64,000 bases of DNA from Candidatus Heimdallarchaeota archaeon (GTDB taxonomy: Archaea; Asgardarchaeota; Heimdallarchaeia; Heimdallarchaeales; Heimdallarchaeaceae), in the NCBI GenBank assembly GCA_018238545.1, contig JABCTC010000014.1:1-64000 (forward strand), read 5' to 3'. The position numbers were made by a program, and so were the translations under genes. The first letter of the stretch is position 1. Each line of letters begins with the position of its first letter. Shown in pieces: positions 16,519 to 31,668 of this stretch. The notes under the pieces were generated by a model. That model did no database searches. It saw only the letters and a list, made by a program, of their open reading frames with translations, and had not been told where the DNA came from.

Positions 16519-17562
16519 ATGAGTGATTCCCTTAAACCATTATTAATTCGATTGGTAGATTCTTTCTCCTATTATCTGATAAATGAAGCAAGAATTAGCA
16601 CTGGTAAAGAGGTTGTAAAGTCAAAAATCAATGATATTGCATATAGAAAAGCAAGTGGGAGATTTGGAGAAGTATATGTCATTGACGTGTTTTACAGTTC
16701 TGAGCATGGGGATCATAAGAGCAAATTAGCTATTAAATTCATTGATAATGTTGAAGATATAATTACAGAAATAAAAAATACTGCACTTCTAGAAAAGAAG
16801 TTTTCAACTCGGTCTATAGTTAGAATCCCACGTTATATTTATGTAAATTTAAAAAAACCTACTTATATTGCCTATGAAGGAATGACAGGAATCAACTATG
16901 AGGACGCACATTCAGTTTCTGATAAGAGCTTCTGGGCAGGCTATATTCTATCAATTATACATGAAGGTAAGCCAAAGCCGGTGATTAAAGATATCTATGA
17001 AGAATTATACAGACGATTGATTTTATCCGTATTTGGTGGTTCTGAAGAAGAACAAAGAATAATGGAAAAATCCAAAGTCTTGATTGAGATGGTTAAAGCT
17101 TCTCAAGGAGGTAGCGATTCTTTTGGTGATTATCATCAAAGCAACCTTATGATTCGCGTTGCTCCAGAGGGTGAGACTGTGAGTATAGCATTAATTGATC
17201 CAACTTTCTGGATGCAAGGATCTTTTGATAGATTTGAAGATATAGGGACATTCTTTGGAAGACAAGCATTTCTTGAATTTCGAGTTACAAAATTGCTAAC
17301 GTCTGCGATAAGTGATATTCAACAATTTATTCAAGGTTATTCTGTTCACTTGAAAGAAATAAATGGTGTTCCTTTGGAGGAAATGTATACAAAAGGGTAT
17401 CCCATAGATTTGTTTTTAGCAACATGGGCTATGATGGATGTATTAGATAAAACTAATAGCTTCAACATAGCTGCTGATCATCCAGACATTATCTTGTTAA
17501 AAGAACTAGCACATTATCTGTTAACAGAACAACCCATAGGAAATGAAGTAAACAATTTTTGA
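16519..17562 (+). CDS. Protein-kinase-like (PKL/APH-type) phosphotransferase
   Basis: SGRFGEVY Gly-loop, LAIKF Lys, helix-C Glu (ITEI), catalytic loop FGDYHQSN, metal-binding IDPTF, downstream EDIGTF. Confidence 0.75.
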   Translation: MSDSLKPLLIRLVDSFSYYLINEARISTGKEVVKSKINDIAYRKASGRFGEVYVIDVFYSSEHGDHKSKLAIKFIDNVEDIITEIKNTALLEKKFSTRSIVRIPRYIYVNLKKPTYIAYEGMTGINYEDAHSVSDKSFWAGYILSIIHEGKPKPVIKDIYEELYRRLILSVFGGSEEEQRIMEKSKVLIEMVKASQGGSDSFGDYHQSNLMIRVAPEGETVSIALIDPTFWMQGSFDRFEDIGTFFGRQAFLEFRVTKLLTSAISDIQQFIQGYSVHLKEINGVPLEEMYTKGYPIDLFLATWAMMDVLDKTNSFNIAADHPDIILLKELAHYLLTEQPIGNEVNNF

Positions 17563-17613: not shown

Positions 17614-18456
17614 ATGACGGATTCTAATTCAGAAATAATGATATCAGCATATGCAATTGCTAAGATACTAGAGGTAGATGCTCTAGATACTTCAAAAGAA
17701 TCTGCTGGTGTTCTCTTAGGTTATTTTGATGAAGAAACACAGAAGCTAATAATAACTGATTTTGATACTGGAAAACAAAGACAAACATCAACCTTTGTCG
17801 TTTTAGATGATGAAGCTCTTGTTCAGATTGTTACAGATTTGCAGAAAAGAGATAAGAAAGAAACAATTGTTGGCTGGGCACATACGCATCCTTCATATGG
17901 TTGTTTCCTCTCTGGTACAGACAAGGGAACTCAAAGAATCTATCAAAATCTCTTCTCAAAAGCAGTAGCTTTAGTGATTGATCCTTCAAAATATTATCAG
18001 TCTCAAAAGAGTTCTGATTTAGAAATTCAGTTCTTTAGGTTAATAGATGATATAGATTACAAAGCAATACCTTATCATCTATATTTTGATGAACACACCA
18101 TACACATTTCTAACTTAGCCAAGGTTGACCTCAAATGGGAATTGCCAAAACTAAGAAAAGAAGAGGTTCTACTTCTACATAAGAAGTTGGAAACGATTGT
18201 GACTCCGTCTTTAATTGAACAAGATAAGAAATTACTTCATGGACTTGTTGATATACTCAGCGAATCTCATGAAATTCTTTCAGAAGTTGGCGAAGAGAAA
18301 GAAATTCTTGAAACTATTGATAAAAAACTACACTCAATAAACGAGAATGTTACCCGAATTTACAATGAGGAAACAAATAACATCTATTCAATAATGAATG
18401 TAGTAGCTGTAATTGTATTAACTATATCTTGGTTTTTAATTGCTTACTTTGTGTAA
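17614..18456 (+). CDS. JAMM/MPN+ metalloprotease (Rpn11/AMSH-like) with C-terminal coiled coil and TM anchor
   Basis: KESAGVLLG (catalytic E), VGWAHTHPSYGCFLSGTD (HxHx7Sx2D), AVALVIDP. Ends IMNVVAVIVLTISWFLIAYFV*. Confidence 0.85.
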   Translation: MTDSNSEIMISAYAIAKILEVDALDTSKESAGVLLGYFDEETQKLIITDFDTGKQRQTSTFVVLDDEALVQIVTDLQKRDKKETIVGWAHTHPSYGCFLSGTDKGTQRIYQNLFSKAVALVIDPSKYYQSQKSSDLEIQFFRLIDDIDYKAIPYHLYFDEHTIHISNLAKVDLKWELPKLRKEEVLLLHKKLETIVTPSLIEQDKKLLHGLVDILSESHEILSEVGEEKEILETIDKKLHSINENVTRIYNEETNNIYSIMNVVAVIVLTISWFLIAYFV

Positions 18457-21474: not shown

Positions 21475-22716
21475 ATGAATTTATTAGAAAGAATATTCAA
21501 AATTTCACAATACCTTAAAGACGGAAACTATAATGTTCAAGACCAAGAGTTTCAAAAAGACCCTTGGACAATGGAGTATTTACCTGAGTTATTTATTTCT
21601 TCTGAACAAGTTAACAGTCAGATTGCGCATTTAATTCAACATTTAACTGGTGGGAATGCCATGTGCTCAATTGTCGGTGGGCAAAAATCTGGTAAATCAT
21701 ATCTGATGAACATATTATATGATGGTCTGAGAGAAGATTTATGGAAATATACGAAGTATAGCAAAGTACATGTTTTGTTATTTAATCCTGATAATTTGAA
21801 GGAATGTTCTCGTACAAATTACTATATGGCAATTGCGGATCAAGTGTTATCAAGGCATTTCACTTCATATGAAGAAGTGATTGTGGAGTTAAAGAGATAT
21901 TTAGAAGGCAATAATGTTCTTCTAGTAGTTATGCTAGACAACTTCCAAACTGACAATCTTTCTTCTATCATAAAAAATACCGCATTACTTCTAAAACCTC
22001 TGAAGAATCATTTCTCTTGTGTTTTATCAAATCAAATCTACGAAGTTAAACTTTGTATTGAAAGTTTAGATAAAGGAGGAATGAAGCATTTCTCATATAC
22101 AATTAGGATTCCTGAAGTTCTTTCACTAGAAGAAACTAAGTTATTGATTCAGAAACGCATATCATATGCTTTGAATCAAATTATTGTGAACGCAACTGAC
22201 TTTTTCTCTGAAAGGGCAATAGAAGCTGCATGGATAGAATCTCAAGGAAAACCTTGGCAGTTAATCTCATTATTAGAAGATTCATATACTTATTCCAGGA
22301 ATCAAGAATCAACAATTGTTTCCCATGATGATGTGCTTACTGTAGCTAAACTATTTGATAGGTCAACAAATCAAGCGGGTGTTGAAGATCACGATACTTT
22401 TGCTATTCAACAAGCTTTGAACAATTTCCCCTATCGAGAAAGACAAGTTTGCCAGTATCTTATGCAAAAGGATGCTAGCGCTAAAGAAATAACAATTTAT
22501 CTATATGGCGAGCTTCCTTCTAATGAGTACAGGAGCAAATATATGGGAACTAAGAGTTTCTTAAAACGACTTAAAGATAAAAATGTAGTAGTGGTCAAAA
22601 AACAAACTGGGAGATCGTTGATATTTGGTTTAAACCCAAAGATGAAGGCTATGTTCTCTCAAGGAACTGATAAAAGAGATTCATCTTTAACAATAGAAAG
22701 TAAAATGGAAACTTAA
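21475..22716 (+). CDS. Divergent AAA+ ATPase with C-terminal winged helix (Cdc6/Orc1-like architecture)
   Basis: EYLPELF N-motif, GGQKSGKS Walker A, VVMLDN Walker B, SQGKPWQL lid, C-terminal RERQV..LKRLKDKNVV wHTH pattern. Confidence 0.6.
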   Translation: MNLLERIFKISQYLKDGNYNVQDQEFQKDPWTMEYLPELFISSEQVNSQIAHLIQHLTGGNAMCSIVGGQKSGKSYLMNILYDGLREDLWKYTKYSKVHVLLFNPDNLKECSRTNYYMAIADQVLSRHFTSYEEVIVELKRYLEGNNVLLVVMLDNFQTDNLSSIIKNTALLLKPLKNHFSCVLSNQIYEVKLCIESLDKGGMKHFSYTIRIPEVLSLEETKLLIQKRISYALNQIIVNATDFFSERAIEAAWIESQGKPWQLISLLEDSYTYSRNQESTIVSHDDVLTVAKLFDRSTNQAGVEDHDTFAIQQALNNFPYRERQVCQYLMQKDASAKEITIYLYGELPSNEYRSKYMGTKSFLKRLKDKNVVVVKKQTGRSLIFGLNPKMKAMFSQGTDKRDSSLTIESKMET

Positions 22717-22738: not shown

Positions 22739-23872
22739 CTATTTTTTGGCTATTAATTTGATTATTGTTATGATCTTGAAAATCACATATGCTAATAATA
22801 GATTTATTAACAGAAGGTTGGTGAATTCAGTAAATATTGGGAACCAAGTTGCTGATTCTAGATAGAAATAACCACCTTCAAAGAGATTCTGCAGAGGATA
22901 ACTATAAGCGCATATTATTAGAAATGGAACAAGATTCAGTATAAAGAATGGTCCTTCAAAGTTATATCGTATTTTACCTGATGTTCCTTCAGCTCTTTGA
23001 TAAGTGATAAAGGCCAAACCTATTCCAATTCCAAATCCTACTATTGGTAATATGTATAACCCATTCAGACCTGTAATAGCCATAAAACTACCATTTGGGA
23101 CTTTCGAAAACATTTCGTTGAGAAATTGAGTGTTTGTTTCTCCAAAGATAGAAACTGCTGTAGCATAATCAAATATAGTATTTGATAAAACTATAAATGC
23201 AAGAGCTCCTATAATGCTTAATAATATTATAATTTGACCAATGATCTCGAATTTCTTACCATTCAATTGTTTTGTAACGATTTTTCTTGAAATAATAATG
23301 AATATAATCATGAATATCAATGAAAAAACAGCTACAATAGTATCCCAAACTGGAACATTATTTATAAATTCTCCAAATGATATTCTTACTGAATTATTAT
23401 GAAAATCAGTTTGAGCTTCTTGAAGAGATAAGAATATACTTACTCCCGATCCAATAAATCCTTGAAGACCGAAAACTATTCCTATTAATAGTAACCCAGT
23501 TCTTCCAGTCATCTCAATTGATGCAAAGAATCCTGCGAAGAAGGCTGTTACAATAAATATGATAAGAAGTGCAGCCAATCCTAATTCAACTGTTTCATAT
23601 GGGTTGTAGAATGACAATACTGCCGCAGCACCTATAAGAATAGAAGCAACAACATTTTTTGCCATAGCACATGAAACAAAAATAATTGCCAAAGTGAAAG
23701 TTATTGTAATTGGAGTGATCCAGTTCCACAAAGTTTCTGCTTGTAGAATTCCCAACCATGGAAGAAGGAATTCAGTTACTGCAACCAAACCTGCTCCGAA
23801 AAACGTTGATAGTAAGGCTCTAAGCGAGAAAAATTGTCCTAGATGAAAGTATTTTACGTTTGTCATATACAT
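22739..23872 (-). CDS. Polytopic membrane protein, unknown function
   Basis: About 10 hydrophobic segments. Confidence 0.7.
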   Translation of the reverse strand: MYMTNVKYFHLGQFFSLRALLSTFFGAGLVAVTEFLLPWLGILQAETLWNWITPITITFTLAIIFVSCAMAKNVVASILIGAAAVLSFYNPYETVELGLAALLIIFIVTAFFAGFFASIEMTGRTGLLLIGIVFGLQGFIGSGVSIFLSLQEAQTDFHNNSVRISFGEFINNVPVWDTIVAVFSLIFMIIFIIISRKIVTKQLNGKKFEIIGQIIILLSIIGALAFIVLSNTIFDYATAVSIFGETNTQFLNEMFSKVPNGSFMAITGLNGLYILPIVGFGIGIGLAFITYQRAEGTSGKIRYNFEGPFFILNLVPFLIICAYSYPLQNLFEGGYFYLESATWFPIFTEFTNLLLINLLLAYVIFKIITIIKLIAKK

Positions 23873-25208: not shown

Positions 25209-25532
25209 TTATTTGTAGTTGTCGATTGTAGAAAACCTCTCTCTCATGGTTTCCATTTCTTTTATCCAAGCTTCTTCTAGGTTAATATCGTGAAGTATGC
25301 ATAATTGCAAAAAGAGAGTGAAAACCTGCGCAAATTCTCTAGATAATCCTTGATTATCTGGTTTTTGGTGACCTTGTTCCTCAGTTTTATATCCTGAAGC
25401 AAAAATCAGATGTTTTCCTATCTCTCCTAGTTCTTCTACTAAATGAATGAAAACGTCGTTGGGGGAAAATTTTAACCAATTACGTTCTTCTAAAAAATTT
25501 TTCAAAGTGTTAATTATCTCATCTAATTCCAT
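25209..25532 (-). CDS. MazG-like nucleotide pyrophosphohydrolase
   Basis: FLEERNW, HLVEELGE, REFAQ (canonical ELAD), INLEEA. Confidence 0.75.
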   Translation of the reverse strand: MELDEIINTLKNFLEERNWLKFSPNDVFIHLVEELGEIGKHLIFASGYKTEEQGHQKPDNQGLSREFAQVFTLFLQLCILHDINLEEAWIKEMETMRERFSTIDNYK

Positions 25533-25546
25533 TAAACATCACGTTC

Positions 25547-27622
25547 TTAAGTAGAATACGTTTTTAGTGTCCTTTTTGTAACGCGGGTTTTGCAAATTGG
25601 GCACTCTTCTTTTATTTTAAGCCACTGTTCCATGTGCTCTTTGTGGGCTAAATTGGTACATGTAGGGCATTCCATAACAGTCTCACCGTGCTTAATTAGT
25701 CCTTGACATATTGAGCACTTGGTAGGAAGCTCCTTACAGTTCTTACATGGTTCATTTACAGATTCAATAACATGCCCACATTTCAAACAGTGTGTCTTTT
25801 TAGATGGGAGTCTAATTCTTGTTAGTCTTTCAAAAGTTGATTGAGTTAGAGAACCTTGATAATAACCATGAGCAATAAGTTGACTAGTCATTTTGAAAAT
25901 GTCAATTTCTGGCAGATTCAACTTCTCAGCAATCGTTACTAGTCGGATTTTCCTTCTTCTGGATTTTTCTATCTCATTTACAACCCTAATATAGATTTCT
26001 CCAAGATCTTTTAGCTCTCTACTAGGTAAGATTTTCTGGAAAGATTCAACGTATACAGCGCTTCCTCTGAGCTCAATATTTAGCAATCCAGAACCCACTA
26101 GTTCAAAAATTATGTTGGTTACAGCTACAGCTGATTTTTCCCAAATTTTCTGTATAGATTTCAAAGATGTTTTTGGATTAGAAATGATGTAGCCAAATAT
26201 TTCCTGATAGTGAATAGGCAAGTCATCTAATTGAACAAGAGGTGGAAATAGAGGAATCTCTTCTGGAATGAGTTTATTTCCTTCTATTGATCCTTTAATT
26301 AACCCCTTACCATAGAAACCATATAGTCTTTCTTTTGCATGGTGCTTGTCAATACCTAATGCAAGCGATATATCTTTGGTTGTAATATAAGCTTTAGAAA
26401 CAATCATTCCTAGAACTATTTTTTCCCATCTTTCTAATGTTCCTTCTTGAGCCCTACTATATCTCTTGATTCCTTCTATAATCAGAACGTTTCCACTTAA
26501 TGAGCATTTTACAAATCCTTCCAAAAGTAAGTTAATGACTCCTTCTAAAATCTCTCCATCGGTTCTATTCATTAAGGCACCAAGTCTTCGTAACGAAATT
26601 TTCTTTTGTGTCGAAAGAAGGCCAAATAGTGCTTCATAACTAAAGAATGATAAAGTCGCCATCTCCTCTATTGTTCTTGTTGGACTAAATTCAGGTATAG
26701 TAACTGGTACAATATCGTTTGTTCCTAAAAATACAACTTGGAAGGTTCCTCTTGCAGTTAGAGTTGCTAAAGTTCTTAGAATTTCGTTTCTTTCCTTTCC
26801 TATGAATTTGCTAATCTCTTGATGAGAAGCTTTTTTGGTTAATAAGAGGTAACCTATAACTTCTTTTTCAATTCCTTGTAAAGTTGATAAAGGAATAATC
26901 TTAGGTTCGATAATATATTTTGTAATATTGATGAATACTGAAGTGGTTCCAAGTTTTTTCTTCTTGAATTCCAATTCTGCTTCTAATTTCTTTAACAGCA
27001 AAAGCTTTGATATTTTTTCTATGATTACTTCTTTAGGAAATTCAGTAATTTTTGAAATTGTGATTATGTTTGCTTTTCTCAGCATCATAGCAATTCCAAC
27101 AATAAATGTATCGTCTTCCGTAAGTTTAATTTTCTCGTCTGGTGCCCAGTTCCATTGTACAAAAACATTCTCTTGCTTTATTGATCCTATAAATAAACCC
27201 CGACTTGTCAGGAAAAATAAGTGATTAATAAGTTCTTTCTTTGATATGCCTACTATTTCTGAAAGATTCGACATACTCACTTTTTCTGATTGAGATAAAA
27301 ATCCAAGAATTATCTTTCTTAATGGTGTCACTCGTGAAGAATTTATTTTGGGATACTTGTATATTGTTGCTATAGAAAATATGCTTCTTCTGTATGAACC
27401 TCTCACAATGAGAGCTTGTACCATTAACTGAATATAATCTTTAATTGCTTCAACTGGAATTTTATAGTTAGTTGAAAACTCTGTTAAATTAATCTCTCTC
27501 AGCAAGTATAATTGAGTTAAAATTTGTGCTCTCATACGTTTTGAAATGTCAACTTCTGGAAGATCTAAATCACTAAACTTAATTTCATAGACATCATCTC
27601 TCTCAAAAGCCAGTTGTACCAT
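25547..27622 (-). CDS. Tandem winged-helix (PCI-like) repeat protein with C-terminal Zn ribbon and RING finger (putative E3 ligase)
   Basis: Eight ~70-aa repeats ending in L..G.h.G.h. Then CLKC..CKNC and CSIC-x12-CPTC-x4-H-x2-H..W..CPIC. Confidence 0.75.
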   Translation of the reverse strand: MVQLAFERDDVYEIKFSDLDLPEVDISKRMRAQILTQLYLLREINLTEFSTNYKIPVEAIKDYIQLMVQALIVRGSYRRSIFSIATIYKYPKINSSRVTPLRKIILGFLSQSEKVSMSNLSEIVGISKKELINHLFFLTSRGLFIGSIKQENVFVQWNWAPDEKIKLTEDDTFIVGIAMMLRKANIITISKITEFPKEVIIEKISKLLLLKKLEAELEFKKKKLGTTSVFINITKYIIEPKIIPLSTLQGIEKEVIGYLLLTKKASHQEISKFIGKERNEILRTLATLTARGTFQVVFLGTNDIVPVTIPEFSPTRTIEEMATLSFFSYEALFGLLSTQKKISLRRLGALMNRTDGEILEGVINLLLEGFVKCSLSGNVLIIEGIKRYSRAQEGTLERWEKIVLGMIVSKAYITTKDISLALGIDKHHAKERLYGFYGKGLIKGSIEGNKLIPEEIPLFPPLVQLDDLPIHYQEIFGYIISNPKTSLKSIQKIWEKSAVAVTNIIFELVGSGLLNIELRGSAVYVESFQKILPSRELKDLGEIYIRVVNEIEKSRRRKIRLVTIAEKLNLPEIDIFKMTSQLIAHGYYQGSLTQSTFERLTRIRLPSKKTHCLKCGHVIESVNEPCKNCKELPTKCSICQGLIKHGETVMECPTCTNLAHKEHMEQWLKIKEECPICKTRVTKRTLKTYST

Positions 27623-27720
27623 CTCTAAAAGGTTAGATTAAATTAGTTAAACATGACTTATTAAAGTTCCCTTATTAAAAATGATTGAATAGTTAATACA
27701 GTGAAGAATAGAAGAGTAGT

Positions 27721-29055
27721 TTAAGCTCTCTCTAAATATTTTAGATATTCCCATTCCCATTCTGCTTCTTTGCTTGTAGATTTAGCTTCCGAATGCTCTT
27801 TACATTCTTTTCTTTTCACTTCTAAGAAAATGTCTGTGATTTCTTTCCCTATTACTTCAGAAACTAAAGTGCTACTTTCTAAATGATCCAAGGCATCACT
27901 TAAGCTGGAAGGGAGTTGGGTGATTCCCATTTCTTTTCTTTCTTGGATAGTTAGTTTTTCTATGTTTTTTACAGTAGATTGAATGGGTTCAATTTTCTTC
28001 TTCATACCATCTAATCCAGCAGCTAAAAGTAAAGCAGAAGCAAGGTAGATGTTTGTAGCACCATCCGTTGCACGAAATTCAAGTCTTGCTTTCTTTTCAT
28101 ATCCTGGAACTCGGATCAACGCTGTACGATTAGCGATTCCCCACGATTTGAATGCTGGTGCTTCATGACCAGGTACTAATCTTTTGTACGAGTTTGTAGT
28201 TGGATTGAATATTGCAGTCATTGCATCGACATTTTCTAATATACCACCAACAAAATATCTTAAATTGTCACTTATTCCTTTTTCTTTATCTGAAAAAATA
28301 TTAACTCCGTTCTGAGTAAGAACCTGATGTATATGTAATCCATTTCCAGCCAGATTCTCAAAAGGTTTAGGCATGAAAGTAGCAATTACTTCATCAAAAA
28401 GCGAGTTTGCTTTGATGATTAACTTTGCAGTTTGGGTATTATCAGCTTGTTTTAAAGCGTCTAAAACACCAAATTCTATCTCTTGTTGAGCATGTCCACA
28501 TTCATGATGAATTGTCTTAACGGGTATTCCCATCTCTAACATATCCCTTGCCATATTTCGTCTTAAGATACCTAAAATATCAAATGGCAAAGTATCCATG
28601 TATTCGCCGTCTTCAACTGGATCTAATTCATCATCAAGAAAATACCACTCTAGTTCAGGTCTGGTTTTGTATTCAAATCCAAGATTATTGGTCTGACCCA
28701 TCACTTTTTTTAGCACGTTCCTTGGGTCTGTAGGATGAGGAGTACCATCATTTTTTTGAATGTCACAGATGAACCTAGCAATTCTTGGTTCCCACGGGAT
28801 TATGGTCACTGTTTCCAAATCTGGGACAACAATCATGTCGCTTTGCTCAGTTTGTAAGAAGCCTAATGAAGACCCGTCTACTCCACTTCCTTCCTGCATC
28901 TCTTCCCAGATACTTGCTGGAAATTCTACTGACTTTAGTTCTCCAAAAATTGTTGTAAACTGAAATTGTATAAACTCGATTTTGTTTTCTGTAAAGAACT
29001 TATTCAAATCACTCATTTCAATCATCACGCTTTCTAACTCTGTGTCAACCATCAT
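27721..29055 (-). CDS. glnA: Glutamine synthetase type I family
   Basis: DGSS, PELEWY, HHECGHAQQEI, TFMPKP, GNGLHIH, NSYKRLVPGHEAP, NRTALIRVP, RLEFR. Confidence 0.9.
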   Translation of the reverse strand: MMVDTELESVMIEMSDLNKFFTENKIEFIQFQFTTIFGELKSVEFPASIWEEMQEGSGVDGSSLGFLQTEQSDMIVVPDLETVTIIPWEPRIARFICDIQKNDGTPHPTDPRNVLKKVMGQTNNLGFEYKTRPELEWYFLDDELDPVEDGEYMDTLPFDILGILRRNMARDMLEMGIPVKTIHHECGHAQQEIEFGVLDALKQADNTQTAKLIIKANSLFDEVIATFMPKPFENLAGNGLHIHQVLTQNGVNIFSDKEKGISDNLRYFVGGILENVDAMTAIFNPTTNSYKRLVPGHEAPAFKSWGIANRTALIRVPGYEKKARLEFRATDGATNIYLASALLLAAGLDGMKKKIEPIQSTVKNIEKLTIQERKEMGITQLPSSLSDALDHLESSTLVSEVIGKEITDIFLEVKRKECKEHSEAKSTSKEAEWEWEYLKYLERA

Positions 29056-29793: not shown

Positions 29794-31668
29794 GTGGAAG
29801 ATATGAATATTAGAAAAGTTAACACATTAATAATCTTAACAATATTATTTGCCTCAATGACATTAGGTTTTAGTGCGAATTATAATGTCCTTGCTGCTAA
29901 CACAGCAGAACCTACAATAGAGCGTATTATGGTTGATGAAGAAGAAATAGATTATTACAGTTTTGAAAATAATACAATTGTCACAGTGGAATACTCAGTA
30001 AACCGAGACGTTGGAGTAGATGGAGTTATTCTAATTGGTTTTGGTTCTGAATTGGATATGGATCCATTCAATAGTATTAACCTAACCTGTTCCTACTCTC
30101 TACAAGATAGAACATACTATGTTGGTGATATTGAGCTTACTGGTAACAGTTATTTCAAAGGTTATGGGTGGGTTGGAGATATAACAAATGGAACATATGA
30201 AGAAGTTGAAGAATTCAATCATCTTGGTCAATGGCACTATTTGTTTGTAAATGAGGATGGTGTCCCTCCACAATTTCATGGAATTGAAAATGCAACATCC
30301 ACAGGATTTCATACCTACTATGCTCCAGCAAACCAAACTAATCATACCATAGTAATTTCTTATAGAGTTTATGGAGGAACAGAAAATGATTCTGTGACTC
30401 TTGTCTATTCTGTTTATCGAGATAAACTTTACAATGCATCACTCAATATTTTTGATAGCACTGTCATTTTTAAGAATATGACTTATGCTGATGACTCAAC
30501 AGAAACCTATGTTGTTTTTAACACGACCATAGAACTCACAGAGAGAACACTTTACTTTGCGGCCAATAATTCTTATGGTTGGGACACATGGGATGATGGT
30601 CTTCTTAAGAATAACTTGAATATTTATAAAATTAACAATGGATTCGATTTTAATTCAGATACTGTGCTTCATGAATCAATAACAGATGTTGATGAGGTTG
30701 ATATTATCATAACAACATTAAACAGTACAGAATATGACTCATTTGGTATAGGGTATTATGTTATTGAAAGTTTAGAAAATGATACTGAAATTGTTTCATG
30801 GACTGAGATTGATGGGACATTACAAAGCAATTATACAGAGGTAAACGACCTTGGTTTCAATGATACAATGCGGGAATATAATGTGTCCCTTGGGATATTT
30901 GACGTTGATAATATCATCTACTTTGAAGCTTACAATATCTATTATGGCGAACTTTACAACGAAACAGTTGGACACTATCACACTATTAGAATTTATGATT
31001 CCAAGCCTTATCTAGAACTGTTCCCTGTAAGTGGATCTTATGTGAACCACGAAGATGTCTCTTTCAGTTTTGATATCTTGTTAAATAGAGGGAATATAAC
31101 CGAAATCTTAATGGATTATGGTGATGGTTCCCCCGTTGCTAACCTTACAGCTTTAGAAGCAGATGAAGACACTGGAATATATTATGTAATCCATTCTTAT
31201 CCTGTAGCAACTGATGGTTACAATGTTACACTCACAGTTAATACTTCTTTAGGAACATTCAACACTACGACAAACTATCTTTATCTCGATTTCGATGCTC
31301 CGACTCTTGAAATCACTGATTTCACGAATAATATCACTGAGATAACAGATGGTTATGTTGAGTTATACTTTACTTACGTTGATGACTATTCTGGTGTTTG
31401 GAAAGTAACCATAGATTGGGGAGATGGTATTGTTCAAAATGTAACAGATGATAATTTTGCTTTCCATTACTATGTTAAAAATGGTACTTATAATGTCGTA
31501 GTAGAGGTTCAAGATAAAGGAGGCAACACTTTCAGCATGAATATTGTTTATACAATTGAACTGCCAGAGACTACTCCAACTGATCAGGCACCATTCGCAG
31601 CTCTATCTGTATTTATCTCACTACTTTCCTTGGGCTGTATTGTATTCCTAATAAGGAAGAGAAAATAA
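29794..31668 (+). CDS. Secreted, C-terminally anchored acidic surface glycoprotein with PKD-like domains
   Basis: Signal peptide, many N-x-S/T sequons, DYGDG and DWGDG..HYY..GTYNV PKD motifs, TM + RKRK end. Confidence 0.8.
   Translation: MEDMNIRKVNTLIILTILFASMTLGFSANYNVLAANTAEPTIERIMVDEEEIDYYSFENNTIVTVEYSVNRDVGVDGVILIGFGSELDMDPFNSINLTCSYSLQDRTYYVGDIELTGNSYFKGYGWVGDITNGTYEEVEEFNHLGQWHYLFVNEDGVPPQFHGIENATSTGFHTYYAPANQTNHTIVISYRVYGGTENDSVTLVYSVYRDKLYNASLNIFDSTVIFKNMTYADDSTETYVVFNTTIELTERTLYFAANNSYGWDTWDDGLLKNNLNIYKINNGFDFNSDTVLHESITDVDEVDIIITTLNSTEYDSFGIGYYVIESLENDTEIVSWTEIDGTLQSNYTEVNDLGFNDTMREYNVSLGIFDVDNIIYFEAYNIYYGELYNETVGHYHTIRIYDSKPYLELFPVSGSYVNHEDVSFSFDILLNRGNITEILMDYGDGSPVANLTALEADEDTGIYYVIHSYPVATDGYNVTLTVNTSLGTFNTTTNYLYLDFDAPTLEITDFTNNITEITDGYVELYFTYVDDYSGVWKVTIDWGDGIVQNVTDDNFAFHYYVKNGTYNVVVEVQDKGGNTFSMNIVYTIELPETTPTDQAPFAALSVFISLLSLGCIVFLIRKRK

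Follow-up and report, generated by a model that had tools for sequence, protein, structure and literature searches.

The UFM1 E3 ligase UFL1-DDRGK1 (UFBP1) is a scaffold-type enzyme built of PCI-like winged-helix repeats (PMC9627666). Asgard origins have been reported for both UFL1 and DDRGK1, and their array is reported to be older than UFM1, with some UFM1-independent role (PMC10183829). RING-type E3 activity has been described in archaea: I30 and W58 matter for the activity of the reconstituted archaeal RING protein srfp, which has a further site at R69 (PMC5654768), and an Asgard E1-E2-RING cascade works in vitro (10.1101/2023.07.25.550441). Other RINGs serve assembly, those of SEA forming structural heterodimers (PMC9646525) and those of IFT-A being degenerate binding sites (10.1101/2022.08.09.503213). 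A PCI subunit has, by definition, a helical-repeat domain ahead of the winged helix (PMC9467303). The gene described here lies at positions 25547-27622 (minus strand) of a 64,000-nucleotide stretch (the window; contig JABCTC010000014.1, positions 1 to 64,000) from a Heimdallarchaeia archaeon. It encodes eight winged helices, a zinc ribbon and a RING in one chain and is probably (at about 0.68) a soluble RING-type ubiquitin E3 whose repeats would serve as a platform for the substrate, that is, a UFL1-DDRGK1-like scaffold with a RING head.

No transmembrane or hydrophobic segment was found in the 691 amino acids (aa) of the open reading frame (ORF), the parts of which are as follows.

25547..27622, minus strand: ORF of 691 aa from an ATG, with eight winged helices, C4 zinc ribbon and RING
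27350..27547, minus strand: winged helix 1, aa 26-91, by model and profile comparison
27140..27334, minus strand: winged helix 2, aa 97-161, by model and profile comparison
26903..27127, minus strand: winged helix 3, aa 166-240; the hairpin of its wing is long
26693..26884, minus strand: winged helix 4, aa 247-310; the linker after it is conserved, 15 residues long and contains a short helix
26459..26647, minus strand: winged helix 5, aa 326-388, with repeat 6 the best conserved
26252..26440, minus strand: winged helix 6, aa 395-457, matching DDRGK1 (8c0d_E, Z 8.4, root mean square deviation (rmsd) 1.8, 59 residues)
26024..26224, minus strand: winged helix 7, aa 467-533; the linker before it is conserved and rich in proline
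25817..26008, minus strand: winged helix 8, aa 539-602, matching the DDRGK1-UFL1 chimera (8b9x_B, Z 9.2, rmsd 2.4, 62 residues)
25736..25789, minus strand: C4 zinc ribbon, C612, C615, C626 and C629
25589..25717, minus strand: C4-H2-C2 RING, aa 636-678, with I638, W667, P675 and K678 at the linchpin position

An AlphaFold2 model based on a 35-sequence alignment (mean predicted local distance difference test score (pLDDT) 87.9) contains eight units between aa 26 and 602, each a helix-strand-helix-helix-hairpin, with the two zinc modules after them; at a predicted template modelling score of 0.68, the global shape of the array is uncertain. Only 25 residues precede the first repeat, and the linkers between repeats are 4-15 residues long. 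All 28 profile-profile pairs among the eight units scored probabilities of 93.8-98.7% (E 1.7e-7 to 2.3e-16), against 0.1-13% for column-shuffled controls (n=40). Searched with a repeat profile, this protein likewise gave exactly eight copies, as did most full-length homologues with identities as low as about 20%; the count is partly circular, those homologues having supplied the profile. An initial annotation, made from the sequence alone, had described eight repeats of about 70 aa; the number is borne out by the model and by the profiles, and the three repeat segments it quoted are all present in the ORF. A sigma-70 promoter and terminator scan at the gene, using a model unsuited to archaea, gave results at chance level.

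Conservation is concentrated in repeats 5-7 and two linkers, and the conserved residues of the array are mostly acidic, aromatic or structural, with no conserved basic recognition helix or wing. The recognition helices have mean net charges of -1.5 to +0.5, and thus no net basic charge. This near-neutrality and the pattern of conservation fit a packed protein-binding platform better than a set of DNA readers.

The PCI-like character of the repeats, also proposed initially, was recovered by Pfam searches, in which PCI was the commonest family among whole homologues (22 of 24 with E at or below 0.05, the lowest being 2.7e-14) and among 144 single repeats (27, with TrmB at 7). The 691-aa protein itself scores 17.6 bits against PCI, below the 22-bit cut-off, and E3_UFM1_ligase matches were obtained in just two of the 24 homologues. 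Against solved structures, the repeat profile ranked the DDRGK1-UFL1 chimera first (E 2.1e-10) and DDRGK1 alone next (2e-8 to 3e-7). Lower positions went to the archaeal regulator PF0095 (1e-5) and to CSN2 (1.5e-4), and proteasome subunits reached 0.016 at best. A Foldseek search with the whole model also placed UFL1/DDRGK1 at the top (E 2.4e-7), followed by TFIIIC tauB (2.1e-5) and SelB (5e-4), all with low template modelling (TM) scores. UFL1 had been mentioned initially as a side lead to a PCI horseshoe; it is the better comparison, because the profile ranks DDRGK1/UFL1 above CSN2 and the proteasome subunits.

Other structural searches did not separate the candidates. In the VIA structure search, repeat 8 matched the DDRGK1-UFL1 chimera (Z 9.2) and a TREX-2 PCI subunit (Z 8.9) in a tie, with Rpn, CSN and eIF3 chains at Z 7.4-8.9, and the whole chain matched winged-helix families that were tied at Z 7.8-9.4, allowing no ranking. 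The nearest ESM Atlas cluster by structure was Asgard PCI/UFL1/DDRGK (TM 0.26), and a search by features gave one archaeal cluster at 0.83, taken as a lead only. Assignment of the gene to CARF/Csa3 or to a defence function was considered and rejected, PADLOC and NCBIfam having given only generic winged-helix matches far under cut-off.

The resemblance to UFL1-DDRGK1 thus lies in tandem PCI-like winged helices, and it has limits. The Heimdallarchaeia protein is one chain of eight complete repeats, with no split winged helix to be completed by a partner; it carries a RING, which UFL1 does not; it has no membrane anchor; and the packing of its repeats cannot be superposed on that of UFL1-DDRGK1 (rmsd about 14-15).

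The RING is liganded by C636, C639, C652, C655, H660, H663, C674 and C677. These eight residues and the four ribbon cysteines are invariant in 24 divergent homologues (to 18% identity) and in 60 homologues of the ribbon-RING module. The residues expected to contact an E2 are kept as well across the 60 module homologues, and among the 24 divergent ones position 638 is V or I in all, 667 is W or Y in all, 675 is P in all and 678 is K or R in 22. The initial description of a C4 ribbon with a RING bearing an E2-contacting Trp and a CP motif therefore stands, with P675 invariant and W667 replaced at most by Tyr. By published residue spacings alone, I638, W667 and K678 are arranged like I30, W58 and R69 of srfp. 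The RING matches catalytic RINGs in sequence (E 1.5e-6) and in structure, RNF165 superposing with an rmsd of 1.0-1.1 over 46-48 residues and RNF4 with Z 8.6-8.7 and rmsd 2.0-2.3 over 57-58 residues. It shares with Arkadia/RNF111, ARK2C/RNF165, RNF4 and srfp the RING fold, the hydrophobic E2 contacts, the CP motif and a basic linchpin position. A match to ribosomal aS34 (E 1.1e-4) was set aside, the similarity being at the RING level only.

A co-fold of aa 535-691 with an E2 encoded on contig C71 of the same genome weakly supports an interaction, scoring 0.54 against 0.00 for the best control, with runs agreeing in at least 67% of contacts and a partner pLDDT of at least 81. Of solved pairs, 58 of 80 attained the mark used for such co-folds, as did 2 of 110 mismatched ones; at scores of 0.60 or lower, however, only 7 of the 80 solved pairs did so, together with both mismatches. 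The score may also reflect likeness to, or memory of, solved RING-E2 complexes.

A single-chain winged-helix scaffold E3 ligase, as the initial annotation had it, is the likeliest function. The RING would engage a ubiquitin-loaded E2 through I638, W667 and P675, and K678 may help to keep the E2~ubiquitin conjugate in its closed conformation. The winged-helix array would form an extended platform wrapping around a large substrate or partner, in the manner of UFL1-DDRGK1, and would present substrate lysines to the E2. On indirect genomic grounds, the preferred setting would be membrane-proximal protein quality control.

Several observations weigh against this function. The gene lies outside any ubiquitin-system operon. 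The whole-chain TM-scores to UFL1 are about 0.1-0.2, and at the level of single repeats the structure scores do not separate DDRGK1 and PCI from DNA-binding winged helices, all being at Z 8-9. The zinc ligands and E2-contact residues of the RING that was initially proposed are confirmed, but not a canonical RING-H2: the ligand order is a C4-H2-C2 variant, in which a CxxC pair stands where RING-H2 domains have C-x-H and His serves as the sixth ligand, and, unlike in catalytic RING-H2 E3s, a C4 ribbon and an eight-repeat array precede it. Close homologues carry a net positive charge (+23 to +31). Finally, the module profile spans both zinc units in IFT144 (E 6.5e-8), MIOS (6.6e-7), WDR24 (5.8e-6), WDR59 (6.5e-6) and IFT122.

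The last of these points bears on the main rival explanation, namely that ribbon and RING chiefly serve assembly, as they do in GATOR2/SEA and IFT-A: through them, a non-catalytic winged-helix scaffold would pair with another ribbon-RING protein. The C-termini of MIOS, WDR24, WDR59, IFT144 and IFT122 have a zinc finger and a RING in the same order and spacing, and GATOR2/SEA chains take the top Foldseek ranks with the C-terminal model. Such a role would agree with the structural heterodimers of SEA and the degenerate sites of IFT-A mentioned above, and potential partners exist, as about a dozen further proteins of the genome match the module, eight of twelve with membrane segments. However, the GATOR2 matches have rmsd values above 10, the model contains winged helices throughout and neither beta-propeller nor alpha-solenoid, and on the RING alone catalytic RINGs score equal or better (Arkadia, E 1.6e-8). 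The E2-contact residues are also retained across the module homologues, whereas IFT144, in the alignment, has lost both histidines and the tryptophan of the RING. We consider an assembly role unlikely. The Asgard module is a possible archaeal source of the IFT144/IFT122/GATOR2 C-terminal module. In Asgard archaea, ribbon and RING occur as a promiscuous tail on many, often membrane-anchored, proteins, and those of the source genome are found on contigs C41, C48, C62, C94, C100, C101, C109, C114 and C119.

The basic close homologues bring in a second alternative, a ligase or regulator bound to nucleic acid or chromatin, the repeats of which would wrap DNA or RNA like TFIIIC tauB or SelB while the RING modified nearby proteins like Nse1. 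TFIIIC tauB and SelB follow UFL1/DDRGK1 in the Foldseek ranking given above, and the C-terminal model matches Nse1 of Smc5/6 (5hvq_C, E 7.8e-4), which similarly has tandem winged helices fused to a variant RING. TrmB, ArsR and Csa3 profiles match single repeats weakly, and relatives carry the same array fused to an Mrr-like nuclease domain (P0075), an N-terminal helix-turn-helix resolvase (P0066) or a PadR domain (P0073). Against these, a conserved basic recognition helix or wing is missing, the conserved residues being of the other kinds listed above, the net charge is not maintained in divergent orthologues (-13 to +22), and PCI outnumbers TrmB among the single repeats. Nse1 has two winged helices instead of eight, and is not known to have a ribbon between them and the RING. 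No kleisin or MAGE partner of an SMC complex was recognised among the gene neighbours, a genome-wide search not having been made. Taken together, binding to nucleic acid appears quite unlikely to be the function of this protein.

A ubiquitin ligase would find its cognate machinery in the same cell. The host genome encodes ubiquitin, E1-like genes and four UQ_con (E2) matches, and the E2 that was used in the co-fold recurs in 79 of the 82 genomes from the class. The E2s, ubiquitin and E1-like genes are spread over a ubiquitin-ESCRT locus on contig C21, a cluster on C114 and the lone E2 on C71 (43169-43636). The first (C21:30277-36294) carries ubiquitin (30277-30513), E1 (30651-31667), a UEV protein, ESCRT-II-like genes and a Vps4-like ATPase, the ESCRT names having been given by sequence inspection; the second (C114:22383-31715) carries E1, a ubiquitin-like protein, membrane RINGs, a JAMM protein and an E2 (27663-28196). 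Ufm1 (PF03671) was not found in this 91.8%-complete genome, where a divergent Asgard Ufm1 could escape the search. A separate 257-aa protein (C86:28577-29350) passes the Pfam cut-off for E3_UFM1_ligase, and a PCI match above cut-off (C41:66062-66232) lies within an 891-aa frame that is possibly a true helical-repeat PCI protein.

An array-spanning match was found in 43 of the 46 genomes of the order, the three without one being 63-82% complete, and the gene is single-copy in the source genome; it is a core gene of this one Heimdallarchaeia order. Close homologues are labelled Candidatus Heimdallarchaeota or Heimdallarchaeaceae, and one of them bears the database label 'E3 ubiquitin protein ligase'. 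Beyond the order, full-length copies occur in three genomes (G396-G398) and shorter relatives in two (G308, G004), and related arrays carry Kariarchaeaceae and Hodarchaeales labels. The remaining Asgard genomes matched through the ribbon-RING module only; here, absence of the array means that it was not found with the query used and with two or three candidates scored per genome.

Genes of the window around the RING gene are as follows, the four marked as conserved neighbours being unannotated.

16519-17562, plus strand: kinase-like protein, conserved neighbour (sequence inspection)
17614..18456, plus strand: JAMM/MPN+ protease, its MPN+ motif intact, with a single membrane segment at the C-terminus
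21475-22716, plus strand: P-loop ATPase-like protein with a C-terminal winged helix, conserved neighbour
22739-23872, minus strand: polytopic membrane protein, conserved neighbour (sequence inspection)
25209-25532, minus strand: MazG-like protein, conserved neighbour (sequence inspection)
29794..31668, plus strand: PKD-domain surface protein with a signal peptide and a C-terminal membrane anchor with a short basic tail

The initial annotation had placed an MPN+ gene about 7 kb away, and the JAMM gene is indeed 7.1 kb from the RING gene; with its catalytic motif intact, its product is probably a tail-anchored deubiquitinase. It had been suggested that the eight repeats might mimic the PCI horseshoe in a single chain and partner the JAMM protein at 17614. 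The repeats do contain a PCI-type winged helix, as do subunits of the proteasome lid, CSN and eIF3 (CSN2, E 1.5e-4), JAMM matches were found in all 46 genomes of the order, and many members of the window's family have the two genes at a distance of 7-15 kb. Such closeness is confined to this family, in whose two closed genomes the distance is 37 kb; in the other three families the JAMM gene is on a different contig in every scorable genome, even where the RING gene lies on contigs of 163 kb and 474 kb. The proximity is local synteny, not a conserved neighbour. In contrast to PCI subunits, the 691-aa protein has eight winged helices per chain and not one, its AlphaFold2 model shows no helical-repeat domain ahead of a winged helix, its short linkers leave the repeats nearly contiguous, DDRGK1 outranks every PCI-complex subunit, and a conserved MPN linkage is lacking. 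The JAMM protein is also probably tail-anchored, which Rpn11 and CSN5 are not known to be. Given that the linkage is local synteny and that the helical repeats are missing, the PCI-horseshoe/MPN idea is unsupported, and we regard it as very improbable. An unrelated small JAB gene lies about 4 kb upstream at one outside locus.

The steadiest neighbour is the PKD surface protein. All 46 genomes of the order have it, and of the 33 in which it shares a contig with the RING gene, 32 have the two within 5 kb of each other, in several arrangements. This linkage may be regional synteny alone, since other genes of the block persist too (an ABC ATPase, a membrane protein, TFB and, in other families, pdxS/pdxT) and related genomes are not independent. 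Outside the window's family, the RING gene usually follows pdxS/pdxT (pyridoxal phosphate synthase), distant lineages included (loci L032, L033, L054-L056, L058, L059, L061, L114 and L115), while in the window's family glutamine synthetase occupies that place.

In a FastTree phylogeny of the C-terminal 385 residues (midpoint root), the core clade stands apart from a second group with a support of 0.984. Paralogues of the second group have five to seven detected repeats plus ribbon-RING, and at seven distinct loci they lead a three-gene operon with tightly packed or overlapping frames (L116:8001-17520, L117:3244-13240, L119, L122, L123, L125 and L126); one member, P0086, is without it. Their operon partners are two large polytopic membrane proteins, of 950-1250 aa with about 16-21 segments and of 1100-1430 aa with about 26-34 segments, which belong to no clear Pfam family (a DUF2339-like lead scored 0.86). 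The first of these has a patchy distribution (5 of the order's 46 genomes), and no copy was found in the source genome. The operon is a candidate membrane ubiquitin-ligase or defence system, and it indirectly points to membrane partners for the family, not for the copy in the window. A more far-reaching picture would make the whole family a ubiquitin ligase system acting close to the membrane of Asgard cells, in which a winged-helix clamp of UFL1/DDRGK1 type is combined with a ribbon-RING head of GATOR2/IFT-A type. In it, the core copy would be PKD-linked and the accessory copies would act with the two membrane proteins, in an ERAD-like (endoplasmic-reticulum-associated degradation) or defensive complex made of modules that eukaryotes later used separately. 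This picture is tentative, and we would rate it as rather unlikely.

Every module of the protein is already known, and domain shuffling in Asgard archaea is documented (10.1101/2020.10.19.343400); no description of eight winged helices with a ribbon and a RING was found in the literature that was searchable, relative to which the combination is new. Its significance is limited by the freedom with which Asgard genomes shuffle such domains, and by databases that already name close homologues E3 ligases. The archaeal E3s tested in the papers found are small, stand-alone RING proteins. With a cognate E1, E2 and ubiquitin in the same genome, a direct assay of this larger protein is possible, and its relation to two eukaryotic modules can be put to the test, namely to the winged-helix array of UFL1/DDRGK1 and to the zinc finger-RING tail that GATOR2 and IFT-A share. 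If the proposed function is true, the Heimdallarchaeia would possess a large, vertically inherited multi-domain E3, and elaborate E3 substrate-binding scaffolds would predate eukaryotes.

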